Assembly: GCA_041653995.1 (NCBI GenBank)
Contig: JBAZEK010000001.1
Span: forward strand, 1,030,613 to 1,094,612
Reading direction: 5' to 3'
DNA: 64,000 nucleotides
Source of the DNA: Dehalococcoidia bacterium
GTDB taxonomy: Bacteria; Chloroflexota; Dehalococcoidia; GIF9; UBA5629
Part shown: in pieces, positions 30,967 through 57,880 of the stretch
Layout: every line of letters begins with the position of its first letter
How positions within the stretch are numbered: position 1 is the stretch's first letter
Position numbers and translations under genes: made by a program
Notes under the pieces: generated by a model
What the model was told of the DNA's origin: nothing
The model's input: the letters and a program-made list of their open reading frames with translations, nothing else
Databases searched by the model: none

Positions 30967-31038
30967 CAATCATTATCTTTGGCTTTGCCGCTCCCTTTGA
31001 CGCTCGCCCGCCCGGTTGCGGGCCGTTTTGATCTGGGT

Positions 31039-31275
31039 TTACATGATGTAGGGCGTGCGGCAGCATTTAAGTGCAACACGATGAGAACATATGGTGGGCG
31101 ATACTGGATTTGAACCAGTGACCCCCTGTGTGTAAGACAGGTAAAAACCTTTAATTGACTGGAGCTTATTGATAATCTCTAGGGAAGCCTTACGTTGTCC
31201 TGAAAGAATCATGCTCAAATAGCTTTTACTGATACCTAATTCTTTGGCTAATTGACTCTGTGTTAACTTTTTCAT
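31039..31275 (-). CDS. XRE-family HTH protein whose C-terminal codons read through the tRNA-derived att repeat
   Basis: LTQSQLAKELGISKSYLSMILSGQRK HTH; last ~20 codons (GVTGSNPVSPTI) overlie the 51-bp tRNA-Val fragment. Confidence 0.55.
   Translation of the reverse strand: MKKLTQSQLAKELGISKSYLSMILSGQRKASLEIINKLQSIKGFYLSYTQGVTGSNPVSPTICSHRVALKCCRTPYIM
31092..31142. repeat. att-site direct repeat: 51-bp copy of tRNA-Val(TAC) 3' end
   Basis: TGGTGGGCGATACTGGATTTGAACCAGTGACCCCCTGTGTGTAAGACAGGT identical to 43144..43194. Confidence 0.85.
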
Positions 31276-31530
31276 TTATTTCACCCGCCTTTTTATATCC
31301 TTTAAGCCTGCGTTTCCAATTATCGGTAAATATTGGTACGACTTCTTCTGTCTTCCTTTTGCACTAAAGTTCCCCTGTGGTTTTCTCACAAAATGACAGT
31401 CTACCTCATCAATAAGCCATCTCCGTCCAATGTAGAGTGCATTAATCCGTCCCTCTGACAAAAGCTTACGAACCCGTCTCTCAGATATACCAAGCCTTTC
31501 TGCTGCCTGTGGAACCGTAAGTAGTTTCAT
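31276..31530 (-). CDS. excisionase-family (HTH_17/MerR-like) DNA-binding protein
   Basis: 84 aa; LLTVPQAAERLGISERRVRKLLSEGRINALYIGRRWLI matches excisionase/Xis HTH pattern; adjacent to attL. Confidence 0.6.
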   Translation of the reverse strand: MKLLTVPQAAERLGISERRVRKLLSEGRINALYIGRRWLIDEVDCHFVRKPQGNFSAKGRQKKSYQYLPIIGNAGLKDIKRRVK

Positions 31531-31823
31531 TCAATTACCTTCTATCATTTTAATATTATACCGTTATCGGAATAATGTCAAGTATAATTACAAGCTAAAA
31601 TATCTTTTCTTTTTGCCGCATTTTTCCATAATACTCCGCAGAATTTTTTCAAATCGTATTTAAATTAAGTTTTAAAAGTTCAAGAATGAGGGTTTATAAT
31701 ATGCATATAAACTGGAAGCATATGGAAGGAAGCACGATAGAAAGTTAGAACGTAAGCAAGCGAGTAAGCAAGAAGGAAAGCAGGCGAGCAGGGAAGCTAT
31801 GTTGCTTTCCTTTTTTTAATTTT

Positions 31824-32398: not shown

Positions 32399-32579
32399 AG
32401 TAGTGCAGCACCCGTTTTAGTAGTTGGAGGTGCTGTGTAAAAATGGTATTAGACAGAAGGAAAAGGCTGATGGAGGAGGGTATGACTCGCCATGATATTT
32501 CAGGAGCCTACTTATTTAATCAATTCAAGTGAGTTGTAATAGATGGTCATACCTATTCGATGGTCTTAAGGAGGAAAAT

Positions 32580-33026
32580 ATGATTCAGGGCATAGAAAAT
32601 TATATAAATTTAACAGATACCAAGAATGAATGGGCAAAATTTCTAAATGGCTTTGAATGGCATTGGTTCTTTACTCTCACATTTGATAAAAAGGTAAGTG
32701 ATGACTTGGCATACAAGCAATTCTTTAGGTGGAAGAATTGGATAAAGAGTTCAGTAGGACACAGAATTTTCTATCTAATTATTCCTGAGCGTCCCAAGTA
32801 TAAGGGAGATAATACTCATATTCATGGATTTCTTAATGGTGTTGAAAATGAGAAACCCTACATATGGAGAAGGAAATGGGAGGCAATGGCAGGCTTTTCT
32901 CGGATTCAACCCTATGATAGTTCAAGGGGTGCAAGCTATTATCTAGCGGATAAAATTGTATTTAAAGAAGAGGATATTTATCATAGCAAAGACCTAAATA
33001 TGATAAAGATAAATACACTCAATTAA
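32580..33026 (+). CDS. putative rolling-circle replication initiator (HUH endonuclease, Rep-like)
   Basis: ATG 32580 after AAGGAGG; motif I FFTLTF, motif II (HUH) THIHGFL, candidate motif III Y-x-x-K in ASYYLADKIVFK. Confidence 0.5.
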   Translation: MIQGIENYINLTDTKNEWAKFLNGFEWHWFFTLTFDKKVSDDLAYKQFFRWKNWIKSSVGHRIFYLIIPERPKYKGDNTHIHGFLNGVENEKPYIWRRKWEAMAGFSRIQPYDSSRGASYYLADKIVFKEEDIYHSKDLNMIKINTLN

Positions 33027-33094
33027 ATCCATTATATATATCAATATGATTATTACTACAAACATCAATATTTATTTCTTTTACTTTTACTTTT

Positions 33095-33150
33095 CCTTAT
33101 GCCCCTTTTTTATTTTTGCCCCAAATATGAATTAAATATAAATATCTACA
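33095..33150. repeat. iteron-like repeat cluster downstream of rep (GCCCCTTTTTTATTTTTGCCCC ... AAATATAAATATCTACAA)
   Basis: GGGGCAAAAA(T/G)A(A/G)AAAAAGGGG-type motif recurs inverted at ~40250..40275; AAATATAAATATCTACAA recurs at 34199..34216. Confidence 0.45.
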
Positions 33151-33231
33151 ATTAATTGCATAAAATTGGGGCATAGGGAAAAAATCACATATAAAATTCA
33201 AATAGAAAGTCAGGAGGAATCAGTAAGTAAA

Positions 33232-33858
33232 ATGAGTACAATAATTTCAAAACCTACGACAATTCAAATTAGCATGCTTGGGACACATGCCTTTTGTGAA
33301 TATAGGATATATCTTGAGCTTGTTATGGGTTTTAAAGCACGAGGTACACCAGAAATGCTTGAAGGCACAAAAGCACACTCAAGGATAAATACGATGGCTT
33401 TCTTAACGAGAGATTCAAATATTAGCATTGAGGATGCGTTGCTCCAAGCAGAGTCAGACGGAAGAGAAATAACAAAAAGGAACGTACGGGTAACAGGTAA
33501 GATACTACGTGGGAATATCGATGAAATTCACATTGGGCCAAAAGAAATTACGATTATAGATGATAAAAAATGGGCAGAGCATTATCCATCATATAAAAAT
33601 CAAGTCTTTGGCTATTGCCTTGCGTTTAAAGAACAATACAACCCAAAGCAGCCGATATACGGTGCCATAAAGAATTATCAGTCTGGAAAGGAAGTCTGGA
33701 AAAAACAATTTTCAGTTTTGGAAGAGGAATATATAAACGGCATTGTTCAAAGAATACTGGGGATAATTCGTGAGGATATCACTCCAAAACCCATTGGTGT
33801 TAGAGAAGTATGCTGGCAATGTGGATTTAAAAATTACTGCAATGTAAGGACACGATAG
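33232..33858 (+). CDS. Cas4-like/DUF83 PD-(D/E)xK nuclease with 4-Cys Fe-S site
   Basis: ATG 33232 after AGGAGG; N-terminal Cys (HAFCEY), IDEI...IIDDKK (D/ExK), QVFGY (QhxxY), C-terminal CWQCGFKNYC (CxxCx5C). Confidence 0.6.
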   Translation: MSTIISKPTTIQISMLGTHAFCEYRIYLELVMGFKARGTPEMLEGTKAHSRINTMAFLTRDSNISIEDALLQAESDGREITKRNVRVTGKILRGNIDEIHIGPKEITIIDDKKWAEHYPSYKNQVFGYCLAFKEQYNPKQPIYGAIKNYQSGKEVWKKQFSVLEEEYINGIVQRILGIIREDITPKPIGVREVCWQCGFKNYCNVRTR

Positions 33859-33895
33859 CAAAATGGTGGAAAAAGGAAAAAGAAGAAACTAACTA

Positions 33896-34159: not shown

Positions 34160-34526
34160 ATTTATTTCCTTTCTTCCCTTTTCCGCTAAATTTAAACTAA
34201 ATATAAATATCTACAAATTATTATATTAAATCCACAACCAAATTTGAATATGAATGCCACAGATAAATGGCGGAAAAGAAAAAGAGTCTTAGAGATATTA
34301 TTATTTTGTATTATTTTCTTTAATAGTCAGATAGCAAGTGTGGCTAAGGGCAATTTTACCTTTAAAAATATTGAATCTGGTTGTCATTTGTCTAGTGCTT
34401 TAAAAATAGAAAACCTTCACGTGTGAGAAATGCCAGTAGCACGTGTATTAGAAGCGGCATTTTAAATAAAATCTTAGCCCAAAGTCATAGCAAATATAGA
34501 TTGTTGCATGCGTCCTTTTAATACGA

Positions 34527-34610
34527 TAGAATACGGTCAATGTAGTGAGGCTGGGGAGATGAAATATTTACTTGCTTGTTTCATAGCACTATTCGTTATA
34601 TCAGCCTGTG
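34527..34610 (+). repeat. 84-bp module (5' UTR + RBS + lipoprotein signal peptide MKYLLACFIALFVISAC) duplicated identically at 40435..40518
   Basis: exact identity of ATAGAATACGGTCAATGTAGTGAGGCTGGGGAGATGAAATATTTACTTGCTTGTTTCATAGCACTATTCGTTATATCAGCCTG; weaker similarity extends ~80 bp upstream. Confidence 0.8.
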
Positions 34611-36502
34611 CATCTCAAGTCCATGTTGGTGACCAAGCTCCAAACTTCACACTGACAGATATAAATGGTAAACGTATTAGTCTGCAAGATTTTCGTGGCA
34701 AGCAGGTTGTTCTTTATCTTTGGTTTTTATATTGTCCTGAATGTACAGAAGACCTTGCTGAGATTCAAGAGTTGAATAATAATAGTGACGAAAGAGTCAT
34801 TAAGTTCCTAACCATTAACCCAGAAAATTCATCAAAAGACGTTGCGGATTTTTTCACTAAAAATGGATATAGTTTCCCAGTTTTGTTTGATTTAGATGGA
34901 AGTATTTACAAGCAATATAATTTACGACCTCGGTCTGCACCCTACACAATAATTATTGCTCCTGATGGAAAGATTAACAATATTACAGTGGGGAATCTTC
35001 ATTATCAAGGTGGTTTAAAACGGTTAATTGGAGATAACGTAACATCCTTCAGTCCAAGTGCACAAACTCAAAAGACTCCAATAATTATCGTACCCAGTTT
35101 ACAATCTCATGGTGTCGATGAACTTGCTTATGTATCTAGCGAAACGAACACGAACTCTATATATGTCGTGAATGCAAACGGGGAATATATTGCTAACTCA
35201 TCTGGAAAAATGGATGCATTATACCATGTTAGTTGGTCGCCAAACGGAGATAAGATTATTTTTGAAGTGGTTAAAGATATCAATATAGACCAGAGAAATA
35301 TGACCCTTATTTCTTCGTCTGATATTTATTCTCTTGATATTAAAGACCATGAAGAGCGTAGACTTACTTCAAATTATCCGTATAGCAATTGTTCTCCCAC
35401 ATGGATTGAAGACGATAAAATCGTATTTTATTCAACAAGGGGAAGTTCGTATGGCAGTTTTTTACAAAATATATACATCATGAACGCAGACGGAAGTAAT
35501 CAGATAAATTTAACTAATTGTGCAGAGAATGTACCTATGGTATTAGAACCAATATTATCGCCTGACCACTTGTCTGCAGCATATATTACGGGTAAGTTAT
35601 TCGATGAAGATATATATGTGATAAACCTAGTGAATGGAAATAAATTTGAAATAGGCCATAATCCAACATTTGCACCCTGGACTTGGTGGTCTCCAAACAG
35701 TAAACAGATAGCGTATATATCTGCCTCTCTAAACGGGGGGCCTGAATCATTTTATCTCTACGATGTCGAAAAACAGAAACCGATAAAATACTATGATAGC
35801 CCTCAATCTTATTCTATTATGGAAATAGCATGGTCGCCAGACAGTAACAAAGTCGCTATTTTTGAAAAACCGCAGAGCTTGTATGTTTTAGATTGTCTGA
35901 GTTCCAAGTTTACAAAACTTGATGGGATATGTGACTGGGTAGTAGAGATGAAATGGATACCTAATAACCAACAAATAGCCATTATTGGTGACAGGTTTAC
36001 AAACAGAAACTTGTATGTAATTGATATTGGTGAGCAGAGTAAGCATAAAATCAATCCAGAGGGAACGGCAGTCGAGTCGTATCGATGGTCAACTGATAAT
36101 ACAAGAATCATTTATTGCTTAGATGATGGATATCTTTACACAACTTTCCTACCCAACTTAAATACCATAAAACTAATGCAACTTAATAAAAATACGATAA
36201 AAGGGTTAGCTTTGTCACCAGACGGTTTATTAATCGCTGTTGCTCTGAGTGACGATACTCTAACTGTAATTTCATTAAACAATAACAAGGTGTGCTTGTT
36301 AACTAATGATTATTACAATATTGGAGCAATTTCTTGGTCGCAAAACAGTAACATACTTGCATTTGAATACGGAACTTTATGGGATAGTCCGTTTGTATGC
36401 AGTAACATTCAAATCATCAATTTCGAAAACGAGGAACAGTTCATTAAATTAGATAAACCAATCTCAGGACGCTCTCCAATTTGGGCGAGAAAGGAAAAAT
36501 AA
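34559..36502 (+). CDS. exported lipoprotein: TlpA/ResA-like thioredoxin-fold domain (CPEC) + TolB-like beta-propeller
   Basis: lipobox ISAC; APNFTLTDINGKRISLQDFRGKQVVLYLWFLYCPEC redoxin; C-terminal repeated W-S-P-D/N-G/S blades (SWSPNGDKIIF, AWSPDSNKVAIF, RWSTDNTRIIY, ALSPDGLLIAV, SWSQNSNILAF). Confidence 0.75.
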   Translation: MKYLLACFIALFVISACASQVHVGDQAPNFTLTDINGKRISLQDFRGKQVVLYLWFLYCPECTEDLAEIQELNNNSDERVIKFLTINPENSSKDVADFFTKNGYSFPVLFDLDGSIYKQYNLRPRSAPYTIIIAPDGKINNITVGNLHYQGGLKRLIGDNVTSFSPSAQTQKTPIIIVPSLQSHGVDELAYVSSETNTNSIYVVNANGEYIANSSGKMDALYHVSWSPNGDKIIFEVVKDINIDQRNMTLISSSDIYSLDIKDHEERRLTSNYPYSNCSPTWIEDDKIVFYSTRGSSYGSFLQNIYIMNADGSNQINLTNCAENVPMVLEPILSPDHLSAAYITGKLFDEDIYVINLVNGNKFEIGHNPTFAPWTWWSPNSKQIAYISASLNGGPESFYLYDVEKQKPIKYYDSPQSYSIMEIAWSPDSNKVAIFEKPQSLYVLDCLSSKFTKLDGICDWVVEMKWIPNNQQIAIIGDRFTNRNLYVIDIGEQSKHKINPEGTAVESYRWSTDNTRIIYCLDDGYLYTTFLPNLNTIKLMQLNKNTIKGLALSPDGLLIAVALSDDTLTVISLNNNKVCLLTNDYYNIGAISWSQNSNILAFEYGTLWDSPFVCSNIQIINFENEEQFIKLDKPISGRSPIWARKEK

Positions 36503-36527
36503 GAAATTTCAAAAATGGAGACTGAAT

Positions 36528-36824
36528 ATGACTGGCGAATTGGGAAATTTTGTTATCGTCATGGGATTACCCTGTTTAGGAGCGCTGTTAATAGCTTTTT
36601 GTTCATTACCAACCGATAAATGGACAATAAAACACACTTTTATGTTGGTGGGAACTTCACTAATTTTTATTAGCTTTATTTTGCAAGCATATCAGATTAT
36701 TGATAAATACCCTGATAAAAATGAATATATATTTGGATGGTGGATTGTCGGTTTAGCTACCGTTATCATGGCTATAATAGGGCAAATTATTAGAATCAGA
36801 TACGGTAAAAGTTGGTTCCAATAG
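36528..36824 (+). CDS. small 3-TM membrane protein
   Basis: 98 aa hydrophobic ORF directly after lipoprotein gene. Confidence 0.4.
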   Translation: MTGELGNFVIVMGLPCLGALLIAFCSLPTDKWTIKHTFMLVGTSLIFISFILQAYQIIDKYPDKNEYIFGWWIVGLATVIMAIIGQIIRIRYGKSWFQ

Positions 36825-36920
36825 GATAATAAAATAGTGGGAAAGGAAAGAGAAGGAAATTTAATTAGCTATCTATATTTAAGATAAGAGTGACTTATAG
36901 AACTTCATTGAGGTTGGGAG

Positions 36921-37451
36921 ATGCAACAACAGTATCAATGCCCTAATTGTAGGTATCCAGTTGCTTATGGGAATAATTTCTGTGGACATTGTAGACAACA
37001 ACTAATCTGGCAACAATTAATGCCACCTTCACCACCAGTACACCATCAGCAAACACCACAAGGCATTATTGGGAAATCACACGAGCAAAACACTTCTGGA
37101 CAAGGTGGTCAATCAATAATACCCGATGAAAAGCGTATTAAACTTCCAAAACTCAATATTCGTTTCGACTTTGAGTTGTTTCAAGCAATTGAGGACAATG
37201 ACCGTAAACTGGCTGAACAGCTCAAAGCAAAATATGGGGATGATGTTTATAATTCCAATTTTTATAACCTGCTTAGTATCGAAGACGCTAACTCAGTAGA
37301 CTCACTTCATCTTAAACTAGTATCAGTTGAAAAAATGAATTTCAATGATATTTTATGCGAAAGTATCAAAATAGAGACTGAAAAAGTACGCAAAAGGATA
37401 GAGGAGCTTGAGAATATAAAAAATTTACGCAACGGGATTGAGGAAGTGTAA
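36921..37451 (+). CDS. zinc-ribbon (MQQQYQCPNC...CGHC) + coiled-coil protein
   Basis: 176 aa; N-terminal CPNC-x11-CGHC; member of the window-wide MQQxYxCPxC family. Confidence 0.55.
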   Translation: MQQQYQCPNCRYPVAYGNNFCGHCRQQLIWQQLMPPSPPVHHQQTPQGIIGKSHEQNTSGQGGQSIIPDEKRIKLPKLNIRFDFELFQAIEDNDRKLAEQLKAKYGDDVYNSNFYNLLSIEDANSVDSLHLKLVSVEKMNFNDILCESIKIETEKVRKRIEELENIKNLRNGIEEV

Positions 37452-37461
37452 GGAACTGACT

Positions 37462-37505
37462 AAACCCCTGAAACTGGCAGCTCGAGTAAGAAAAATGGCG
37501 GGAAA
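37462..37505 (+). repeat. ~44-bp intergenic repeat (AACCCCTGAAACTGGCAGCTCGAGTAAGAAAAATGGCGG), second copy 39411..39455
   Basis: ~90% identity; each sits between a stop codon and next start; in second copy ATGGCGG is the start of the HEPN-like gene. Confidence 0.6.
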
Positions 37506-37511
37506 GAAAAT

Positions 37512-39368
37512 TTGATTTATATGTTATGGGATGATACGTATCGTAAAGATGCAGCGGAGTATGAAATCTATCTGCGTATGCATCATAAAGAAAAAAACGA
37601 TTACGAGAAGCTTTTATCTAATCTTGAACGTGAGTGGTCAGAAAAATCAGTTAAAGAAGAAAACTACATATCGCTTAAAAAGGAATACACAGCGAAACTA
37701 CAGGAAACAAAGAAGTACATTTCAAAGCTGAAATTCCAGATTACAGCACTCATTAAAAAATGTAATAAAGACATAGATAAAATCGATAGCCAAATTGAAC
37801 AAATTAAATTGCGGCACAAAGTTGGTGAATATTCAGAGGAGAAACTCAAAGAACTATTATCACCATCTGAAACAGAAAGAAGGCAATTTGAATCCTTAAT
37901 AATCGAACTGAAACGCATACATGGCTTGAAATATATACCTAAACCAACTACCGATGATGTTGTATCAGAAACAGAACCGAGTCAGCCTAGAAGGTCTCCT
38001 ATCCCAACGTCATCTACTTCTATTTCAACAGCTGAAGAGCAAGCCCCCGAAATATCAGCACCAATGAGTTTTGAAGAACCGCCTCCTATTTTGGTACCTG
38101 CTGTATTTAAAAAGTCTTCACCTGTAAGAGTAAAGAAGAGTCTGTGGATTATGGCTTCGATTACTATGTTTGTAATATTAATTCTCTGTTTTGTTATTTG
38201 GAATATAGAAGTGCATAAAAAGGTAATCCCTCAGATTGGAGACCAAGCTCCAAACTTCTCTCTCCCAGATATGAATGGTAAAACGGTTAACCTTCAGGAC
38301 TTTCACGGAAAGGGTGTTGTTCTTTACCTTTGGGACACATCATGTCCTTACTGCAAAAATGACCTTAGCTGGATAAATGAATTAAATGGCTGCACCTATG
38401 ACGAAGCAATAATATTTTTAACTATTAATATCTCAGATTCACGTGGAACAGCTATTAAATATTTTGAGGAAAATGGATATAGTATTCCCGTTTTAAATGA
38501 TATGCGTGGGACGGTTATTAAGCAGTATGTAAAGTACACCTTAGGCCATACGTATCCAGATACTATTCTTATTGGTTCAAATGGCCAGATTCGTAATGTA
38601 AAAGTCGGGCCCTTCCAAAGCAAGACTGAATTAAAAACATTTATAGAATCAGGTTTAACCCCCCGTTGGGATAATACTCCTCCACAAATTTATGATATTA
38701 ATCTTTCTAAGGCCTCTATTTTGAGTTGGAAAACGGATGAGGAAACACATAGTAATATACAAGGGTTTCGTAATAGTGTCGGAGGTGCTGGAGTCACTCT
38801 TGGTGAAAATTGGACAAGATATCATAGCGTAAATGAAACAGTTTGCACTAATGGCTACTATGACCAAATTCAAATCAACTCGTATGACCGCTGCGGTAAT
38901 TCTGCTTCAAAAGTTTTTACACTGCCCAACTGCATAAATTTAGGTTGTAGAGCTCCTGATTTCACAGCAACTTCAACTAATAATCAGGATATAACGCTGT
39001 CCGCAGTACCTAGCAAAATGACTCTACTTCACTTCTGGCTACTCGGATGTGGTGCATGTGAAAAGGAACTTCCATTAATCCAAAAACTATATTATGAGCG
39101 TCCTAGAGAAGAACTTGAGATATTGGCTGTGAATGTTAGAGGTGACATATACAGCATAAATGACTTCGTTACTGCAAATGGTTATAGATTAATTATTTTA
39201 CTAGATACAGAAGGCATAATAGATGCCGCCTATCATAATCCAAGGTTCCCCACAACCTTTTTATTGGATTGCAATAAGGTAATTATTAACAAGCATGACG
39301 GTGCCTTTCAAAATTATGAAGAAATCGTTGATTTTGTAGGTCAGTATCCAAAACTTCCTGGTAAATAG
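37512..39368 (+). CDS. bitopic protein: cytoplasmic coiled-coil, one TM helix, two periplasmic TlpA-like thioredoxin-fold domains (CPYC, CGAC)
   Basis: 618 aa; TM SLWIMASITMFVILILCFVIW; APNFSLPDMNGKTVNLQDFHGKGVVLYLWDTSCPYC; second redoxin LLHFWLLGCGACEKEL. Confidence 0.7.
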   Translation: MIYMLWDDTYRKDAAEYEIYLRMHHKEKNDYEKLLSNLEREWSEKSVKEENYISLKKEYTAKLQETKKYISKLKFQITALIKKCNKDIDKIDSQIEQIKLRHKVGEYSEEKLKELLSPSETERRQFESLIIELKRIHGLKYIPKPTTDDVVSETEPSQPRRSPIPTSSTSISTAEEQAPEISAPMSFEEPPPILVPAVFKKSSPVRVKKSLWIMASITMFVILILCFVIWNIEVHKKVIPQIGDQAPNFSLPDMNGKTVNLQDFHGKGVVLYLWDTSCPYCKNDLSWINELNGCTYDEAIIFLTINISDSRGTAIKYFEENGYSIPVLNDMRGTVIKQYVKYTLGHTYPDTILIGSNGQIRNVKVGPFQSKTELKTFIESGLTPRWDNTPPQIYDINLSKASILSWKTDEETHSNIQGFRNSVGGAGVTLGENWTRYHSVNETVCTNGYYDQIQINSYDRCGNSASKVFTLPNCINLGCRAPDFTATSTNNQDITLSAVPSKMTLLHFWLLGCGACEKELPLIQKLYYERPREELEILAVNVRGDIYSINDFVTANGYRLIILLDTEGIIDAAYHNPRFPTTFLLDCNKVIINKHDGAFQNYEEIVDFVGQYPKLPGK

Positions 39369-39410
39369 ATAATTTCTTGATATTAAGAAATCGAGGTGTA
39401 CTGGTCTGAA

Positions 39411-39455
39411 CCCCTGAAACTGGACAGCTTGAGTAAGAAAAATGGCGGAAAAAGA
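39411..39455 (+). repeat. second copy of ~44-bp intergenic repeat
   Basis: AACCCCTGAAACTGGACAGCTTGAGTAAGAAAAATGGCGG. Confidence 0.6.
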
Positions 39456-39951
39456 AATGCAACAGGAGGAGCATCCCCTAAATATGGGGAAGCTACTTGT
39501 GAATTTCCAATCACTTGAGATAGCTCTCCGTCTATTTCTTTATAATGATGAAATTGCCTCTAGAGTTTCATCTCCTCAGGCGGTAAACCTAAATGCTATG
39601 AATGCGGGGGATATAGTAGCTGAAAATGCGTTCACAAACTATGATAGTCTAAGTCAACTCATTGATAAATATAATAACCATCCCAACATCATATCGACAG
39701 GTCTAACCATTGATAAGACTTTAGTGGACATACGTGATGCAATAGCTCATGGAAGAGTCGCTGGAGTCACTCCTTTGCTTGTGCCTCCTTTAAAACTAAT
39801 GAAGTTTGATAAACCAAAGAACAAAAGTGTGAAAGTAACATTTAGCGTTTTATTGACAAGGGAATGGTTCATTCTAGAGATGGCTAAGGTTCAAGATGCA
39901 GTTTTTAAAGTCTTTCAAGCTATCCAAATAATACAGAGTGCTAAGACATAA
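39442..39951 (+). CDS. hypothetical protein with HEPN-like R-x4-H motif
   Basis: 169 aa; IRDAIAHGR contains Rx4H; predicted all-alpha. Confidence 0.4.
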   Translation: MAEKEMQQEEHPLNMGKLLVNFQSLEIALRLFLYNDEIASRVSSPQAVNLNAMNAGDIVAENAFTNYDSLSQLIDKYNNHPNIISTGLTIDKTLVDIRDAIAHGRVAGVTPLLVPPLKLMKFDKPKNKSVKVTFSVLLTREWFILEMAKVQDAVFKVFQAIQIIQSAKT

Positions 39952-40434
39952 GTGGTGCCCTCTGAAATCGCTCTGAGGGGCTGAAATCAGGGTGTTGCAT
40001 ATTGAACATGACGGATTCCACCTGTCATTACTATTCCAGCTTAATTAGAGCCTTTAAAGTATTAAACAGTAAAGGTAATAACTCTACTTCCTTTCCCTTA
40101 AGCCCCTTTATTATTTCTTCGCCTAAGTTTCCGTTCAAGTGAATTATGTCGCTTTTAAGACCAACAAACGCTGGTACACCATAAACACGTTTACGTTCAA
40201 GCCAATTATGTCGTTTTGCATATATTATTTCCAGCTTAAATTAACTACAGAAAAATGGGGCAAAAAGAGAAAAAGGGGAATTATATATCAATTTATTGTC
40301 AATAATCTTTGAAATACTATTACTTCATCTGAGAGAGATGCCAGCAGCTAAGTGTAACGGCATTGAATTTTAAATAACTTCTCAGCCCAAAGTGGTAACG
40401 CATATAGGTCTATTGCATAAGTATTGTTCATATA

Positions 40435-40518
40435 ATAGAATACGGTCAATGTAGTGAGGCTGGGGAGATGAAATATTTACTTGCTTGTTTCATAGCACTA
40501 TTCGTTATATCAGCCTGC
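40435..40518 (+). repeat. second copy of 84-bp 5'UTR+signal-peptide module
   Basis: identical to 34527..34610. Confidence 0.8.
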
Positions 40519-41880
40519 ACACCAAATAACTCAATAAACAACGTTGAGACATTCCCAAAAATCGGAGATAAGATACCGAATATCTCATGGACTACTATCA
40601 ATGGCGAAAAGATTGATTTAAATCAGTTTAAAGGCAGTTGGGTGCTACTATGCTATTGGTGCTCTTGCCCTGTACATAGGAATGACATACTGACTATTCA
40701 TAATGTTTATGATTCATTATATGATAAGAATCTCGATGTCATTGTAATTAATGATACTTATGCTCAGATAGAATTAGAGGCATTTGGAAAACAAAACAAT
40801 GTACCGTTTTATTTAATTGAAGATAATCAAAAAACAATTGATAAACTTGTACCATTTGGCAACAGGCCAATATATCTCTTAATTGATGGGAGTGGGGATT
40901 TACATGCTATCGAAATAGGTACATTTCGCTCTGGCGAAAATAGCGTTAACAATGTAATCAATTTCCTTGATGATGTGATTAAGGTAAGAATCGATAATAT
41001 TACAGTCACTAATATTACTTCAAATAGGGCAACTGTGAGATGGAAAACAGATAAGGCAGTACCGTGTTGGTTGGAAATTCACCCCCAAGGTGACCCAATC
41101 GGAAAGTGCATCGGCAAGACAAATCCAAATACATTTCATGAATTGATATTAAACTGTAATCCCAACACAGCTTACACTTTTAACGTAGCTGCTAGTGGAT
41201 TAGATAATTCTTTAATTAACGATGCAAGCAATCGTAGTAGTGAATTTTCATTTCAAACATTACCAAATTGGGTTACTTCTTTATATGAGGTTGACTCTAC
41301 TAAACCAAAAATATCGAATGTTAAAGTTTCTATAATTACAGATACGAGTGCAGAGTTATATTGGGAAACTGATGTGGAAGCTCAAGTCACCGCTACAATC
41401 TGTAAATATATATCCAGTACTGATGCGCCCTTAAACTCCCAGAAAATTGATTTTATAGAAGACATATATTTTACAAAGAAACATAGCTTTACAATTAGCT
41501 CTCTTGAGCCAAGACGATTATATGACGTTGGTTTAAATGCCAAAGATAGAATGGGAAGGGTTGCCGATTACAGTGTCGAATTTTTAACACAACCTTCAAA
41601 TTATACTCACGGAGCGAAGATATCCAATATATCTTTATATGACATCACGGACAGGAGTGCTAAATTAAAATGGTCAACTGACAAGTCAGTATGGAGTTCA
41701 GCCTGCTATAAATATGAGTGCTCTTCTGGGGACATCAACACTGAGCATTCATATACACTATCCTATGGTCTGGAACCCGATACAGAATACTGGGTGCAAA
41801 TTCTAGCACATGGGGAATCGGTATCTGATGTATTCAACTTCAGAACATTAAAGACAACAGATAAGGTAGATATGAAATGA
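40468..41880 (+). CDS. exported lipoprotein: thioredoxin-fold domain (CYWCSC) + three fibronectin-III/purple-acid-phosphatase-N-like domains
   Basis: 470 aa; same signal peptide as 34559 gene; Fn3-like segments TNITSNRATVRWKTD, VSIITDTSAELYWETD, ISLYDITDRSAKLKWSTD. Confidence 0.7.
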   Translation: MKYLLACFIALFVISACTPNNSINNVETFPKIGDKIPNISWTTINGEKIDLNQFKGSWVLLCYWCSCPVHRNDILTIHNVYDSLYDKNLDVIVINDTYAQIELEAFGKQNNVPFYLIEDNQKTIDKLVPFGNRPIYLLIDGSGDLHAIEIGTFRSGENSVNNVINFLDDVIKVRIDNITVTNITSNRATVRWKTDKAVPCWLEIHPQGDPIGKCIGKTNPNTFHELILNCNPNTAYTFNVAASGLDNSLINDASNRSSEFSFQTLPNWVTSLYEVDSTKPKISNVKVSIITDTSAELYWETDVEAQVTATICKYISSTDAPLNSQKIDFIEDIYFTKKHSFTISSLEPRRLYDVGLNAKDRMGRVADYSVEFLTQPSNYTHGAKISNISLYDITDRSAKLKWSTDKSVWSSACYKYECSSGDINTEHSYTLSYGLEPDTEYWVQILAHGESVSDVFNFRTLKTTDKVDMK

Positions 41881-42084: not shown

Positions 42085-42316
42085 TATAGACATATTTAAG
42101 AAAGTGGTGACTTATAAAACTTCATGCTGTCCTGAAAGCTGAATGACCGAGTATATCTTTGCACCATAATAAAGTTCAGCCAAGGCACCGTTAAAATGTA
42201 CTACAGAATTGTTCTAAAGGGCCAAAATGGGGTATATAATATAGGGCATGACAGATTCTTCCTGCCTGAGCTTTTCAAGCTTAATTATTGAACAAATAAC
42301 TATGAAATCCTGATTG

Positions 42317-43081
42317 CTAACGAGGTAACTGATTTGAGCCGTTCACATCTTTGTAGACTTGAAGAGCATCCTCAAAGGATAAAGATTTTGAATACCTTTC
42401 AACCATAGAAATGCTTTCCCAACCGCCTAGATTTTGCACAATACGAGTGGATAACCCAGACTTAATATTGTGAATACAAAACCCTCTTCTATAGCTATGG
42501 GCGTTGGACTTAATGCCAGTTTCTTTAGACAATCGTTTAAGCATAGTTTTAATGCCAGCTCTTGATATTTCAAAACTATCATGCTCATCAAACCACTTTC
42601 CGATAACACCATTACCAGCTAAAGCCTTACGATACTTGTTACCCTTGCCCAGAATGGTTACTGTACCTTCACCCCAGTCAAAGTCTTTAGCGTGCACATT
42701 AGCACATTCACTCAGCCTTACTCCTGAGTACCATAAGAAACTAATTAATGCTCTATCACGTTCACAATGACAATGATTTATCAGAACTTCTAATTGTTCT
42801 TTTGATACCGCAGGCAATAGCTTCTTTTGAATTTTTGGGCTAGGAACTTTGTCAATAACCTTGTCGTGAATATAGCTATTGCTGTATAGCCATGAAATGA
42901 GAGTTTTGAGAGCTTGATAGAATCTTGCTTTGCCATTATGACAGGTAAGTGATTTTAGATAAGCATTAACTCCATCTGGACTTAGGGGATAACCAATAAA
43001 ATGAGTTAAAGTATATTCGTAAAATTCAATAGTTCGCTTACTACAACCATCGGGGCGAGAAGAAATAAACTTCTCCAACAA
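42317..43081 (-). CDS. tyrosine recombinase/phage-type integrase (compact XerC/D-like)
   Basis: 254 aa; N-terminal SAM-like domain, catalytic R...HSYRRGF...LGGW...Y (R-H-R-Y); adjacent to tRNA-Val target. Confidence 0.85.
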   Translation of the reverse strand: MLEKFISSRPDGCSKRTIEFYEYTLTHFIGYPLSPDGVNAYLKSLTCHNGKARFYQALKTLISWLYSNSYIHDKVIDKVPSPKIQKKLLPAVSKEQLEVLINHCHCERDRALISFLWYSGVRLSECANVHAKDFDWGEGTVTILGKGNKYRKALAGNGVIGKWFDEHDSFEISRAGIKTMLKRLSKETGIKSNAHSYRRGFCIHNIKSGLSTRIVQNLGGWESISMVERYSKSLSFEDALQVYKDVNGSNQLPR

Positions 43082-43143: not shown

Positions 43144-43219
43144 TGGTGGGCGATACTGGATTTGAACCAGTGACCCCCTGTGTGTAAGACAGGTGCTCTA
43201 ACCGCTGAGCTAATCGCCC
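43144..43219 (-). tRNA. tRNA-Val (anticodon UAC); integration target
   Basis: rc GGGCGATTAGCTCAGCGGTTAGAGCACCTGTCTTACACACAGGGGGTCACTGGTTCAAATCCAGTATCGCCCACCA; encoded CCA. Confidence 0.9.
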
Positions 43220-43226
43220 TGGGGAG

Positions 43227-43302
43227 TGGCACGCCTGGTGGGGCTTGAACCCACGGCCTCAGCCTCCGCAGGGCTGCGCTCTATCCACTGAGCTACAGGC
43301 GC
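43227..43302 (-). tRNA. tRNA-Arg (anticodon GCG as read; G37)
   Basis: rc GCGCCTGTAGCTCAGTGGATAGAGCGCAGCCCTGCGGAGGCTGAGGCCGTGGGTTCAAGCCCCACCAGGCGTGCCA; anticodon stem CAGCC/GGCTG, loop CTGCGGA; G1·U72 wobble if ends are as drawn. Confidence 0.7.
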
Positions 43303-43308
43303 ATAAAA

Positions 43309-43395
43309 TGGTGCCGAAGGTGGGAGTTGAACCCACACATCCGTTACGGATACTACGCCCTGAACGTAGCGCGTCTGCCATTCCGCCACTTCGGC
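43309..43395 (-). tRNA. tRNA-Leu (anticodon CAG), long variable arm
   Basis: rc GCCGAAGTGGCGGAATGGCAGACGCGCTACGTTCAGGGCGTAGTATCCGTAACGGATGTGTGGGTTCAACTCCCACCTTCGGCACCA. Confidence 0.85.
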
Positions 43396-43397
43396 CC

Positions 43398-43470
43398 TGG
43401 GCAGCACAGGATTTGAACCTGTGACCCCTTGCGTGTGAAGCAAGTGCTCTAACCGCTGAGCTAGCCGCCC
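43398..43470 (-). tRNA. tRNA-Val (anticodon CAC), CCA not encoded
   Basis: rc GGGCGGCTAGCTCAGCGGTTAGAGCACTTGCTTCACACGCAAGGGGTCACAGGTTCAAATCCTGTGCTGCCCA followed by GG. Confidence 0.85.
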
Positions 43471-44586: not shown

Positions 44587-45612
44587 ATGCAGCAATGGAT
44601 AAGATGCACCAGATGCGGCGCCAATAATGCTCCCGGACAGAAATTCTGTAACGCATGCGGTACACCCCTGCCGACCGTCTGCCCCAATTGCGGAACCCCG
44701 GCAGGTCCCGGCAGCACTTTCTGCGCCAGGTGCGGCATGACATTCAGCGGTATGCCCCAGCAGACCGGATATTACCCTCCGCAGCAGCCGGGATATCCTC
44801 AGCAACCTGGCTATCCGCAGCAACCGGCATATCCGCAACAGCCGGGCTATCCTCAGCAACCGGGCTATCCTCAGCAACCGGGCTATCCGCAACAGCCGGG
44901 ATACCCGCAACAGCCTGGATATCCGCAGCAGCCCCCCGGCTACCCGCCTCAACAGACCGGCTATTATCCTCCGCAGCAGCCGGGTTATCCTCCACAGCCG
45001 GGATATCCGCAGCAACCGCCCGGTTATCCGCCGCAGCCGGGATATCCGCAACAGCCCGGCTATCCCCAGCAACCGGGATATCCGCCGGGCTATCCTCCGC
45101 AGCAGCCGCCACGCGGAGCGTATCCGCCGGGCGCAAGGCCACCCCAGCAAGGCGGCGGCAAAGGCATGCTCATATTGCTGCTGGTTGTTCTGATTGCCGG
45201 CCTGGCAGGCTTCGGTTACTGGGCTTACAGCCAGGGCTACCTCAAGGGCATACTTAACTTCGGCAGCGATAACACCACCACCTCCACAGGGAAACAGAAG
45301 GACACTGTGCCGCCCACCATCAGCGGCGTAGAAGTTAGCGCCAAGGCCATAAACGAAGTCGGCATTATCTGGAAGACGGACAAGCCATCCAGTTCTCAGG
45401 TGGAATGGGGTCCCAAGGGATCGTTCGGCAACAAGACGACACTACAGGATGACCCCGTGAGCGGTACCAGCATCGGTGTCACCGATCACGGGGTTATCGT
45501 CAAGGGATTAACGGCAAATACTGAATACCAGTACCGTGTGTTATCACATACCGACGGCAACGTTGACGCCGTATCCGCCACCAATACTTTCACGACACCT
45601 TCGGCAGATTAA
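44587..45612 (+). CDS. double zinc-ribbon – PQ-rich (PGYPQQ x ~20) – TM – Fn3-like domain protein
   Basis: 341 aa; [44 protein letters not shown]; [23 protein letters not shown]; C-terminal [17 protein letters not shown]...TEYQYRV purple-acid-phosphatase-N/Fn3-like. Confidence 0.65.
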
Positions 45613-45644: not shown

Positions 45645-46529
45645 ATGTATCAATCAACAGTACCCTGCCCTAAATGCGGCGCGCAGAACCTGCGGGGACA
45701 GTGGGTATGCGCGTACTGCGGAAATACGCTTGTCGTTTATTGTCCATCCTGCCATACCGGCAACGCCATCGACAGCCAGTATTGCCACGCCTGCCATGCA
45801 GTTCTCGCGTATACCGGCGTTCCGCCGGCTCAACCACAGTATCAACCCCAACCCCAGCAGCCTCAACCATATCCGCAGTACCCGCAATATCCTCCCGGGC
45901 AAACTGACCAGGGCCAGTACCCTCCGCAGTATCCACCCTACCCTCCACCCGGTTATCCACCACAGCAACCACCCTACCCGGACTACCAGGCCGGATACGG
46001 CCAGCCCGGCGATTATAAACCATACTCGGTTCACGGCGGCGAAGCCTACGCCGGAGGCGGGCTGGACGGCCTGATCGACAGGCTCAAAGAGTTCGTGCGC
46101 AATACCAATCCCATTCTCCTCTCTTCGCTGGTGGTGCTGGTAGTCGGTCTGACCATCTTCCTCATCCTGGCCTTCCAGTTCGGCTGGATCAAGACGGGTT
46201 CGGCGCCCAAAGTAGAAACAGTTAAAGATACCACAGCTCCTGTGATAACTTATTTAACTTATGAGCCCGGTGAAAATAGAAGCATTATAATAATTTGGGC
46301 AACCAATGAGCCAGCAAGTACGCGGGTCGAGTGGGGTATCGCACCTGTTTTCAACCAATTCACACTTATAGAAAACGATCCCCAAGTTGGCCAAGGTACA
46401 CTTTCACATAGGGTAACATTGACTAACCTGCTACCAAACACCAGCTATATTTACCGCGCAATATCATATGACAAAGCAGGGAACAAATGCATGAGTCCTA
46501 CTATGCCATTCCAAACTACGAACTACTAG
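45645..46529 (+). CDS. paralogous double zinc-ribbon – PQY-rich – TM – Fn3-like protein
   Basis: 294 aa; CPKCGAQNLRGQWVCAYCGNTLVVYCPSCHTGNAIDSQYCHAC; same architecture as upstream gene. Confidence 0.65.
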   Translation: MYQSTVPCPKCGAQNLRGQWVCAYCGNTLVVYCPSCHTGNAIDSQYCHACHAVLAYTGVPPAQPQYQPQPQQPQPYPQYPQYPPGQTDQGQYPPQYPPYPPPGYPPQQPPYPDYQAGYGQPGDYKPYSVHGGEAYAGGGLDGLIDRLKEFVRNTNPILLSSLVVLVVGLTIFLILAFQFGWIKTGSAPKVETVKDTTAPVITYLTYEPGENRSIIIIWATNEPASTRVEWGIAPVFNQFTLIENDPQVGQGTLSHRVTLTNLLPNTSYIYRAISYDKAGNKCMSPTMPFQTTNY

Positions 46530-56281: not shown

Positions 56282-57880
56282 TCACGGGGTTACGCTCACG
56301 GTGACCGTGGCGTTATCAGTCCCGTAGCTGTTGATGGCGGTCAAGGTAAAGCTGGTGGTTTCAGCCGGCGATACAGCCTGCGTGTATTTCGAGGCTGGAA
56401 CGCCGATGCCCTGGTCAATAATGTATAAAGTAGCGCCATTCACATTCCAGGAAAGGTTGGATGTCCCGCCCTGAGAAATGCCGGTAGGCGTGGCCGTGAA
56501 AGATCTTATTATCGGCGCAGTGCCGTCGGTTAAAACGCCTACCGCAACCGTGACTTCCTTCTTTACGGAGCCGAACGTGTTGACCGCGGTCAGCTCATAA
56601 GTGGTGGAAGCGGTCGGTATCACCTTCGTCCAGCCGGAAGACGGTACGCTGCCGACATTCGGGCTGATAGAGACTGTCCTGGCCGCATCGACCGTCCAAT
56701 TGAGTGTCACCTCCTCCCCCAGCATGATCGAATTGTTGCTTACGGAGAAGGTTTTAATCCGGGGCGGGTCTTTGGTCAGCGCCGGACCGGTGCTCAGGCT
56801 GGAAGCATCCACGCTGATAGTGACCGTCCTGGTTACCGAGCCGTAGTCGCTGTCGGCCCTCAATGTATATACTGCGGTCTCGGAGGGCGTTATTCTGACC
56901 GTACCCTTTAAGGCCACGCCGCCGATGCCCGGACTGATATTAATCGATTTCGCGCCGATGATATCCCATGCCAGCGTCGCTTCGTCGCCGGCTTTAATCG
57001 AGGACGGGCTGGCGCTGAAGATCGTGATGATGGGCGTCTTGGATGTGCTTACCTCCAGCGCGGCTGAAGCGGTTGTATTGCCGTTGATATTGGCCGCCGT
57101 CAGCACATAGCGGGTGGTCGCTCCCGGGGAAACGACTTTCGATCCGGTCGAAGATACGGTTCCCACCTCCGGCTGGATGGAAACCGATGTTGCGCCGGAG
57201 ACGTTCCAGGATAAAGTGGACGTCTGCCCCACATAGATACCGCCAGGGCTGGCAACAAAGCTGTTGACCGTCGGCGGCTTGCCGGTGACCTCAACGGTTA
57301 TCTCCCTGCTCACAGAGCCGCCGAAACGGCTATCGGCGGTCAGCTTATAGGTAGTGGTTTCATCCGGCGACATTTTCTTTGTTCCGCTGAAAGACACCGT
57401 CCCTATGCCGGGGCTGATGGAGACGGCGGTTGCCTCGCCGACATCCCACTGTAAAGTCACCTCCTGGCCGGATATAATCGTAGATGAACTGGCCTCGAAA
57501 GCTGTAATAACCGGCGGCGCAAACAGTTTTTCAATATCTCCCTTCAAAGCAACGCCCGTGACGATAAGCGCTGTAACAACAAGCAAGGCAGAGGCTATAG
57601 CAATAGTCTTTGTCCGGTTATCTTTTATCCGCTGCAGCAGTTTCGATACGACGCTATTATTCGGCGGTTGTTCCTGTCCCTGCGAATCCTGACCCGCCCA
57701 TTGATTACCTTCCTGCGACTGATACCATTGCTGCTGCTGATCATGCCGGGAATCGTATGACTGGGACTGGCCCTGCGTCTGGGATCCCTGCCAGTTGAGG
57801 ACGGTTTTGCAGTATGAGCACTGCGCCTGTCCGTAGACGACAGGTGTGTTGCAGTAGGGGCAGTAATACATTTGCTGCAT
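56282..57880 (-). CDS. zinc-ribbon (MQQMYYCPYC) – TM – Ig-like-repeat surface protein
   Basis: 532 aa; five ~95-aa repeats with TLxWxVxGAxSVSIxPGIGTVSxSGxxxVxPxxTTxYxLTA consensus. Confidence 0.7.
   Translation of the reverse strand: MQQMYYCPYCNTPVVYGQAQCSYCKTVLNWQGSQTQGQSQSYDSRHDQQQQWYQSQEGNQWAGQDSQGQEQPPNNSVVSKLLQRIKDNRTKTIAIASALLVVTALIVTGVALKGDIEKLFAPPVITAFEASSSTIISGQEVTLQWDVGEATAVSISPGIGTVSFSGTKKMSPDETTTYKLTADSRFGGSVSREITVEVTGKPPTVNSFVASPGGIYVGQTSTLSWNVSGATSVSIQPEVGTVSSTGSKVVSPGATTRYVLTAANINGNTTASAALEVSTSKTPIITIFSASPSSIKAGDEATLAWDIIGAKSINISPGIGGVALKGTVRITPSETAVYTLRADSDYGSVTRTVTISVDASSLSTGPALTKDPPRIKTFSVSNNSIMLGEEVTLNWTVDAARTVSISPNVGSVPSSGWTKVIPTASTTYELTAVNTFGSVKKEVTVAVGVLTDGTAPIIRSFTATPTGISQGGTSNLSWNVNGATLYIIDQGIGVPASKYTQAVSPAETTSFTLTAINSYGTDNATVTVSVTP

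Follow-up and report, generated by a model that had tools for sequence, protein, structure and literature searches.

The nearest described counterparts of the locus reported here are of different kinds. Etrx1 and Etrx2 of Streptococcus pneumoniae are surface thioredoxin-fold lipoproteins that work with CcdA and with the methionine sulfoxide reductase MsrAB2 (PMC3914529). In the vpma locus of Mycoplasma agalactiae, which lies beside a tRNA gene, the 5′ untranslated region (5′UTR) and the signal-peptide region are conserved, and the recombinase Xer1 acts at a site within positions −1 to −72 (PMC2268961). Here we analyse a 64-kb stretch of DNA from a Dehalococcoidia bacterium (contig JBAZEK010000001.1, positions 1,030,613 to 1,094,612, forward strand; hereafter the window) that holds an integrative element, or island, whose cargo includes three genes for thioredoxin-fold proteins, A, B and C. 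Genes A and C begin with an identical segment. Our overall reading, which we regard as probable, is that an element integrated at a tRNA gene carries anchored redoxins of the ResA class as cargo, that the leader of A and C was homogenised by recent gene conversion, and that this leader has recombined independently across the redoxin family. Integrative islands, ResA-like redoxins and lipoprotein leaders that evolve in concert are each of a known kind. The novelty lies in an element backbone with almost no public relatives, a rare island-borne redoxin family with shuffled modules, a recurrent promoter block and a subfamily with the motif CxxCxCxxH. A literature search for redoxin islands of Dehalococcoidia gave nothing relevant.

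The three redoxin open reading frames (ORFs), listed in a first-pass annotation of the window, are present on the plus strand exactly where it placed them. NCBI labels their products simply 'redoxin domain-containing protein'.

34559-36502, plus strand: gene A (MFA5399816.1), with a lipoprotein signal at residues 1-17, a ResA-like thioredoxin (Trx) domain with CPEC at about 23-147 and a PD40/TolB-like beta-propeller of about 11 blades at about 185-640.
37512-39368, plus strand: gene B (MFA5399819.1), with a coiled coil, a transmembrane (TM) helix at about 211-231, a first Trx domain (B1) with CPYC at 242-371, an Fn3-like linker and a second Trx domain (B2) with CGAC at about 478-600.
40468-41880, plus strand: gene C (MFA5399821.1), with a lipoprotein signal, a divergent ResA-like Trx domain at about 30-170 and three FnIII-like domains at about 175-460.

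The identical segment of A and C is an exact repeat of 83 bp, with an offset of 5909 between the copies. The first-pass annotation had given 84 bp and the pair 34527..34610 and 40435..40518, which is one base out of register. Its description of the content (promoter, 5′UTR, ribosome-binding site (RBS) and lipoprotein signal shared by the first and third genes) is upheld by exact extension and alignment, as is the further upstream similarity that it reported.

34526-34608, plus strand: repeat copy 1, comprising the putative −10 box TAGAAT (34527-34532), the 5′UTR, the Shine-Dalgarno sequence GAGG (34547-34550), the ATG at 34559, 16 signal-peptide codons and two bases of the Cys codon.
40435-40517, plus strand: repeat copy 2, comprising the −10 box, 5′UTR, RBS and signal peptide of gene C.
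34420-34525, plus strand: upstream homologous block of gene A with a putative −35 box TTGCAT (34504-34509), about 58-67% identical to 40329-40434 and also found in a sister element (L020, below).
40329-40434, plus strand: upstream homologous block of gene C with a putative −35 box TTGCAT (40413-40418), identified by alignment with the block of gene A.

The tract begins at the A preceding TAGAAT, runs through about 26 nt of 5′UTR, with GAGG eight bases before the ATG, and through codons 1-16, and stops inside the codon of the lipobox Cys17 (TGT in one copy, TGC in the other). Its bounds are thus the −10 box upstream and the lipobox Cys codon downstream, and it encodes the signal peptide MKYLLACFIALFVISA. 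Upstream of the tract the A and C loci can be aligned for about 190 bp at 58-67% identity; downstream, in the DNA of the mature proteins, identity is at background (about 52%). When the window is compared with itself, no exact repeat of at least 30 bp emerges other than this one and a 51-bp repeat at the attachment (att) sites of the element, so that a chance origin of the leader repeat is excluded.

Comparison across the family places this leader in a wider context. The commoner leader type, MGNKIQYLLICVLA.LAISAC, has the consensus MG(N/S)K(I/F)(Q/K)Y(F/L)LI..LA.LAIS(A/G)C and is 74-78% identical in DNA between genomes. The leader of A and C, MKYLLACFIALFVISAC (hereafter the MKYLL leader), aligns as a derived form of it: GAGGCATGGG has become GAGGCTGGGG, the old ATG has been lost, 5 nt are deleted and another ATG has arisen downstream. 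MKYLL leader DNA is 94-98% identical among four genes in three genomes, namely A and C of the window, P0130 (contig L009) and P0003 (contig L017). The encoded leaders differ only by A6P and I9L, the Cys codon aside, and their 51 nt are almost without synonymous changes. The mature proteins follow another pattern.

P0003, with the MKYLL leader: mature part 72-74% identical to P0004/P0005, which have the MGSK leader, and 60% identical to A, which has the MKYLL leader.
C, with the MKYLL leader: mature part 74% identical to P0122, which has the MGNK leader, and 45% identical to P0130, which has the MKYLL leader.

Four lineages of mature protein therefore bear the MKYLL leader, and two of these, P0003 and C, have their nearest relatives among proteins with the older one. 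Because a derived leader stands on lineages whose closest relatives keep the ancestral one, recombination between leader and mature part is needed, and the leader appears to have moved without the mature part. Between A and C of the window, 33 of 33 positions are identical in the UTR and 50 of 51 in the leader, against 76-85% and 94-98%, respectively, between genomes. The contrast in the UTR implies that A and C were homogenised recently; by a rough estimate, the chance of 83 straight identities at between-genome rates is about 1e-4. We infer that the 83 identical bp mark recent gene conversion between A and C, which are paralogous at their 5′ ends. Ordinary homologous gene conversion suffices, because both copies have their own promoter. 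The first-pass annotation had proposed a cassette-like swapping of export leaders between otherwise unrelated mature domains. Recombination is indeed the best explanation, given the incongruence of leader type and mature type across genomes that our survey of homologues revealed, but we found no dedicated cassette mechanism: there is no recombination site and no inverted orientation, and the leader resembles the att core no more than chance allows. As for the mature proteins, A and C both open with a Trx domain, yet are only about 25-27% identical.

The promoter part of the module has a distribution of its own. When the 5′ regions of seven family members, drawn from five genomes, are aligned, one block stands out as conserved: CTATTGTATAAGT..TTAATGCGATAGAATgCGG, then TGAGGC and then ATG. 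It can be read as a putative −35 box (TTGTAT/TTGCAT), a 17-nt spacer, a −10 box (TAGAAT) and an RBS. A pattern search located this block twice in L020, at 13342 and 14342, accompanied by some of the upstream homology; there the copies head a small non-secreted ORF and a gene for a zinc-ribbon/TPR protein; neither is a redoxin gene. The island itself has a divergent version of the promoter/RBS module (TATAGAAC ... TGAGGTTGGGAGATG) ahead of the zinc-ribbon gene at 36921. Since it heads unrelated genes in L020 and the gene at 36921, the promoter part is a recurrent feature of the element pool that is independent of the redoxin genes. We infer three transcription units: A with a 98-aa gene; a 176-aa gene with B and a 169-aa gene; and C with a 58-aa gene.

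The region is the cargo of an integrative element inserted in the 3′ end of a tRNA-Val(TAC) gene. The element is 12,052 bp long and has 36.1% GC, between flanks of 53.6% and 54.2% GC (the host Dehalococcoidia metagenome-assembled genome (MAG) has about 54%). Exact direct repeats of 51 bp, found by an exact-repeat search, delimit it at 31092-31142 and 43144-43194. The direct repeat of a tRNA 3′ end, the adjacent tyrosine recombinase and the deviant composition together identify a tRNA-integrating element, and the att repeats, low GC, integrase, excisionase (Xis), Rep and Cas4 genes bear out the mobile-element setting proposed in the first-pass annotation.

31092-31142, minus strand: attL, a 51-bp copy of the 3′ half of tRNA-Val(TAC) and the left end of the element, where GC drops from 54% to 36%.
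43144-43219, minus strand: the intact tRNA-Val(TAC) gene (ARAGORN), whose 3′ 51 nt (43144-43194) are attR, the right end.
42317-43081, minus strand: small XerA-like tyrosine recombinase (integrase) adjoining the tRNA gene (Pfam Phage_integrase, 3e-21; PHROG integrase, 1e-22).
31276-31530, minus strand: excisionase-like HTH_17 protein (PHROG excisionase families; HTH_17 in precomputed Pfam), 81% identical to its counterpart in L020.
32529-33026, plus strand: HUH rolling-circle Rep-like protein of 165 aa with the motifs FFTLTF, THIHGF and SYYLADK (Pfam REP_ORF2-G2P).
33166-33858, plus strand: Cas4-like PD-(D/E)XK nuclease with a C-terminal Cys cluster (Pfam Cas_Cas4, 4e-07; NCBIfam cas4, 1e-13; PADLOC Cas4).

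The top NCBIfam match of the integrase is XerA_Arch, at 110 bits and under the 220-bit cutoff. The Rep protein is borderline for REP_ORF2-G2P (27.6 bits against a cutoff of 27.8), and all three HUH Rep motifs are present in its translation; we identified no origin for it. Besides the Xis-like protein the backbone encodes two more helix-turn-helix (HTH) proteins. A 78-aa HTH ORF (31039-31275, minus strand) crosses attL, with its last approximately 25 residues contributed by the tRNA-derived repeat and the flank, so that its C terminus would change upon excision or integration. The tRNA-Val(TAC) gene is the outermost of a cluster of four on the minus strand at 43144-43470, the others being Arg(GCG), Leu(CAG) and Val(CAC). 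We recognised no mobilisation or conjugation genes on the element. A defence system was considered and dropped, as the PADLOC match is limited to the Cas4-like nuclease. With its integrase beside a tRNA gene, tRNA 3′-half repeat, Xis, putative HUH Rep, deviant GC and variable cargo, the island resembles the tRNA-targeting integrative elements with a rolling-circle Rep. It differs from them in that its Rep has a single homologue among 5.8e9 proteins, with no match in plasmid or phage records or viral collections.

That homologue (P0134, 66-68% identical) belongs to the sister element, L020, at 9000-17500 of contig_46783 of the Chloroflexia MAG MFD03726.bin.2.102. L020 is a low-GC region of about 8.5 kb that adjoins tRNA-Ala(TGC); it shares the Xis (81%) and the Rep, together with fragments or remnants of an integrase. 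Its cargo consists of membrane proteins and the zinc-ribbon/TPR protein, without redoxin genes. Because L020 shares the backbone but carries other cargo, the redoxin genes are true exchangeable cargo.

Relatives of the redoxins fall under the three types as follows.

P0003-P0005: relatives of the A-type Trx domain.
P0002, P0006 and P0136: relatives with the B-type architecture.
P0122-P0132: C-type relatives.

The family is rare. A query with the C domain returned just 6 cluster representatives at E<1e-30 in 1.84e9 proteins, and a close C-type relative (45% identical) is encoded by one of 185,579 GTDB species genomes; the two other loci from the species-genome search are redoxin genes of Cycloclasticus that are about 30% identical. 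A scan of JGI metagenomes with the leader pattern gave nothing beyond the already known L010 contig. Where context is available, the redoxin genes always lie in AT-rich DNA, either low-GC contigs or islets in Chloroflexota-type contigs. Some islets have 35-40% GC inside contigs of 47-58% GC; that of L002 is about 7 kb long, that of L009 starts directly after tRNA-Glu and that of L011 directly after tRNA-Asn. The contigs L008, L018 and L019 are low in GC throughout and hold tandem family arrays with separate PD40 propeller genes. On L018 (2527-7941; Logan SRR17650021), three tandem C-type redoxin genes are accompanied by a separate PD40 propeller gene; on L008 (2976-8344; Logan SRR17650021) there are an FHA-ABC transporter, a TM2-Trx protein, a DnaJ-domain protein, P0005 and a propeller gene. 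L018 and L008 may derive from a low-GC lineage that serves as the family's donor pool. We considered a backbone common to the redoxin-bearing loci and found none; only the redoxin genes are shared. The family combines its domains as Trx with propeller, Trx with Fn3 and Ig-like domains, two Trx domains with Fn3, and Trx with Fn3 and propeller (P0132), so modules have been shuffled within it.

All four Trx domains of the island find their best sequence matches in the ResA/TlpA/CcmG(DsbE)/StoA class. Pfam AhpC-TSA/Redoxin matches have E-values of 9e-25 for A, 4e-38 for B (two domains) and 2e-12 for C, and the NCBIfam ResA model (NF002854) is the top match of each protein. Among solved structures the top relatives by sequence are ResA, then Etrx, StoA and TlpA, with matches to ResA at 8e-20 (A), 2e-16 (B) and 1e-07 (C); the entries 2yp6 and 4hqz, both Etrx, are among the best matches of A and B. 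For C, structure prediction agrees: its AlphaFold2 (AF2) model has a mean predicted local distance difference test (pLDDT) score of 78, with 85-92 in the Trx part, which matches ResA (4nmu_A) at a TM-score of 0.81 (Foldseek). The same model yields three FnIII-like sandwiches, in line with the Pfam fn3 / Pur_ac_phosph_N match of C and with the three Fn3-like domains proposed for it in the first-pass annotation. The propeller of A, likewise proposed there as TolB-like, is matched by Pfam as PD40/WD40-like; in the AF2 model it comprises about 450 well-modelled residues in about 11 blades and matches double-propeller proteins, tricorn and TolB. B has no further Pfam domain. The thioredoxin fold thus holds for all four domains.

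The description of all four as CxxC redoxin domains holds in part. A, B1 and B2 have CPEC, CPYC and CGAC, whereas C has no CxxC at that position. A HMMER alignment to ResA sets C67-P-V-H70 of C on the CxxC of ResA, embedded in C62-Y-W-C65-S-C67, and C62, C65, C67 and H70 are invariant or nearly so across the C family. The C-type Trx domains (residues 62-70 in C; P0122-P0131) keep C-Y-W-C-x-C-x-x-H, and there are about a dozen such proteins in 1.84e9 representatives; the second domains of P0129 and P0131 have V-C-G-C-P (CxC). At the active-site position of thioredoxin, the motif suggests either a CxC redox centre or metal binding by Cys and His, and this CxxCxCxxH variant is the sole unusual feature among the redoxin domains. 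The reported common start, xGDxAPNFxL, fits A and the first domain of B, and only loosely B2 (LGCRAPDFTA) and C (IGDKIPNISW).

The proteins are predicted to be exported and membrane-anchored, as first proposed. The shared leader of A and C agrees with the lipoprotein rule (PROSITE PS51257), having a Lys (K2) in the n-region, an uncharged core and I-S-A-C with the Cys at position 17. In B a coiled coil, predicted to be cytoplasmic, is followed by a positively charged stretch and then by one TM helix ahead of the first Trx domain. A and C would therefore be lipid-anchored through the lipobox ISAC and B by its single helix, with all redoxin domains on the outer face of the cytoplasmic membrane. 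'Periplasmic', the earlier term, is doubtful: an outer membrane is regarded as missing from Dehalococcoidia, which would leave the proteins facing outside. Several host ORFs in the window likewise show lipobox-like N termini.

Like ResA, TlpA and Etrx, the A, B1 and B2 domains would be thiol-disulfide oxidoreductases working outside the cytoplasm. A CcdA/DsbD-type protein of the host would supply the electrons, and the propeller and Fn3 modules would serve as targeting or binding parts that aim the redoxins at envelope substrates. C lacks a resolving Cys and would for this reason work differently, for instance by way of a CxC disulfide, by a monothiol mechanism or with a metal bound by Cys and His. 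The proteins also depart from the known members of the class. Their Trx domains are joined to beta-propellers, to Fn3 domains or to a cytoplasmic coiled coil, their genes belong to a mobile island and have no cytochrome-maturation, Sco or CcdA gene in the vicinity, and C has CPVH with extra cysteines instead of CxxC. The Etrx proteins share the predicted placement, as thioredoxin-family lipoproteins on the outer membrane face of a bacterium without an outer membrane, but they are single-domain and chromosomal and work with CcdA and MsrAB2, partners for which we found no genes on the island or in the window. A novel envelope redox or host-interaction system, as first suggested, finds no support here: the domains are ordinary ResA/TlpA-class folds, and the island carries no electron-donor or substrate gene.

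Several observations weigh against the reading that we favour. The promoter, the start codons and the lipidation are read from sequence, and a generic sigma-70 scan did not list the conserved putative promoter, a site that it missed because TTGCAT fits just 3 of 6 positions of TTGACA. No protein reaches the curated NCBIfam ResA cutoff (89.5 bits for A, 161.7 for B and 53 for C, against 170), so that they are ResA-like and not ResA equivalogs. The Trx domain of A is of low confidence in the AF2 model (pLDDT 30-60), because just 4 of 33 aligned sequences were chosen for matching that part. CcdA/DsbD, Msr, Sco and cytochrome-maturation genes are absent from the island, and none is evident among the ORFs of the window. 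The genes with the MKYLL leader come from few related metagenome projects, which makes the number of independent recombination events uncertain. Selection at the nucleotide level could also contribute to the conservation of the leader.

Taken alone, such selection would mean that the identity is kept purely because the nucleotide sequence matters, as an operator, a regulatory 5′UTR or leader RNA, or a small-RNA target; A and C need not have recombined at all. In favour of this, unrelated genomes share the promoter/RBS block, and the 51-nt leader is nearly free of synonymous change in four genes from three genomes. Yet the same UTR is just 76-85% identical between genomes, so selection alone does not hold it at 100%, and the run of 83 identical bases is as improbable at between-genome rates as estimated above. 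The leader RNA folds no better than shuffled sequences (z = 0.26), by which we ruled out a structured leader RNA, and a derived leader on incongruent mature lineages needs recombination anyway. We consider selection without recombination unlikely. That the repeat is an artefact of assembly or duplication has a negligible probability. At 83 bp it is shorter than typical reads and than the k of 141 implied by the k141_ contig name of a second assembly. That independent ENA assembly (L001, 20.8 kb) is 99.9% identical to window positions 30999-51778 and shows the same arrangement across the island with both leader copies, and related leaders exist in other samples. The L001 contig starts at window position 30999, 93 bp left of attL, which could reflect island-present and island-absent variants in the population.

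A site-specific system in the manner of Vpma/Vsp or of integrons would make the 5′ module a substrate for the XerA-like recombinase, which would swap or capture cargo behind a fixed promoter and leader. The precedent is close in several respects: in M. agalactiae the Xer1 site lies within the conserved 5′ region of vpma, with a tRNA gene adjacent (PMC2268961), and the present locus likewise has a multigene family with a conserved 5′UTR and lipoprotein signal ahead of differing mature parts, and a small Xer-like recombinase and a tRNA gene nearby. In L020 the promoter module stands before unrelated genes, and diverged repeats (39990-40047 and 42230-42287) flank the gene C unit. But Vpma/Vsp/Vsa loci have inverted genes, a single promoter and site-specific inversion, whereas A and C are direct, each has a complete promoter of its own, and two independent assemblies show the same arrangement with no rearranged form; the mature parts here are enzyme-like domains and not repetitive antigens. 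We therefore set aside a phase-variable locus of that kind, of which only the shared 5′UTR and signal are found. The recombinase is the integrase of the island, with a normal tRNA att site, and the leader region has no att-core similarity beyond chance. An integron was also rejected, the integron-integrase model scoring 53 against a cutoff of 265 bits and no attC-like inverted repeats surrounding the genes. Site-specific exchange at the 5′ module is improbable, then, to about the same degree as selection without recombination. Still less probable is that the element is an integrated membrane-containing (pleomorphic) virus whose redoxin, propeller and Fn3 proteins are virion surface proteins and not cargo of benefit to the host. 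Its size of about 12 kb, the Cas4-like nuclease and integrase, and the sole Pfam resemblance of the HUH Rep, to plectrovirus/inovirus Rep proteins, would suit a virus, as would the predicted membrane anchoring of all large cargo proteins; some Dehalococcoidia, such as Dehalococcoides, lack a cell wall. Against it, neither the leader pattern, the C-family profile, Rep nor Cas4 has a match among viral contigs (IMG/VR), and there is none in phage records. PHROG matches are confined to regulators, Xis and integrase, no capsid or morphogenesis gene was recognised on the island by Pfam or PHROGs, no Walker-A ATPase occurs among island ORFs of at least 60 aa, and redoxin genes also occur in islets and contigs that lack the backbone. 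An inovirus or plectrovirus prophage was likewise dismissed, since no pI/Zot-like ATPase, PHROG structural match or viral-contig match was found. Recent conversion of the leader within a tRNA-integrated element remains the reading that we prefer.

The remaining cargo genes and a family of short motifs are listed here.

36528-36824, plus strand: 98-aa protein with three hydrophobic segments, starting 25 nt after gene A; no family match (Pfam, NCBIfam).
36921-37451, plus strand: 176-aa protein with an N-terminal zinc ribbon; weak Pfam DZR matches.
39442-39951, plus strand: 169-aa protein with an R-x4-H motif (RDAIAH); weak HEPN_RiboL-PSP match (E 0.078).
31606-31624 (minus), 33092-33110 (minus), 33860-33878, 34263-34281, 36831-36849, 37491-37509, 39439-39457 and 40252-40270: sites of a purine-rich motif.

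The 98-aa gene is probably co-transcribed with A, given the 25-nt distance. We tried its product as a half-size CcdA and dropped the idea, there being no DsbD/CcdA signal even at E up to 10. The 169-aa protein is possibly a HEPN-type RNase or toxin. The N terminus of the 176-aa protein resembles those of the host ORFs 56282-57880 and 58107-60068. In the host envelope proteins 44587-45612, 45645-46529, 56282-57880 (minus strand) and 58107-60068, the same type of N-terminal zinc ribbon (MQQ.Y.CP.C) is accompanied by a TM segment, an Fn3/Pur_ac_phosph_N domain and long repeats rich in P, Q, G and Y (18-nt PQQPGY units).

The purine-rich motif, AAAATGG[CGT]GG[GA]AAA[AG]GAAA, occurs about ten times in intergenic regions of the island, with two weak matches in the other 52 kb. 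Copies are also present in L009, L017, L008 and L020, where they are sometimes ORF starts (MAGKK/MAGR). It may be an operator for HTH proteins of the island or a remnant of a shared gene start. Diverged direct repeats occur as well. The pair flanking the gene C unit is 58 nt long and 71% identical. Another, of 34 nt and 85% identity, joins 36875-36908, in the promoter-like region of the 176-aa gene, with a solo copy at 42092-42125 that has no gene behind it. Both pairs may have been left by earlier rearrangements of the cargo. A 29-nt direct repeat (40127-40155 and 40189-40217; 86% identical, copies 62 nt apart) lies in the long intergenic stretch ahead of C.

A bolder view can be put forward, although we think it rather unlikely. 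The promoter/5′UTR block of about 150 bp, with or without the leader, would be a portable expression cassette of undescribed rolling-circle, tRNA-integrating elements of Chloroflexota, capturing and re-heading cargo through a Xer-like recombinase or through frequent templated conversion. The hallmark cargo would be diversifying surface redoxins, including the new, possibly metal-binding CxxCxCxxH centre, which would remodel the envelope of hosts without an outer membrane.

Existing ideas are not overturned by these findings. The locus is a clean, checkable case of concerted evolution and module exchange at the 5′ ends of surface-protein genes, outside the pathogens in which these are usually studied. 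It adds a new, putatively rolling-circle, tRNA-integrating backbone whose cargo varies, from a phylum in which mobile elements have been little characterised. It also brings to light a small and so far unstudied family of envelope redoxins carried by islands of Dehalococcoidia and other Chloroflexota; in one subfamily CxxCxCxxH replaces CxxC.

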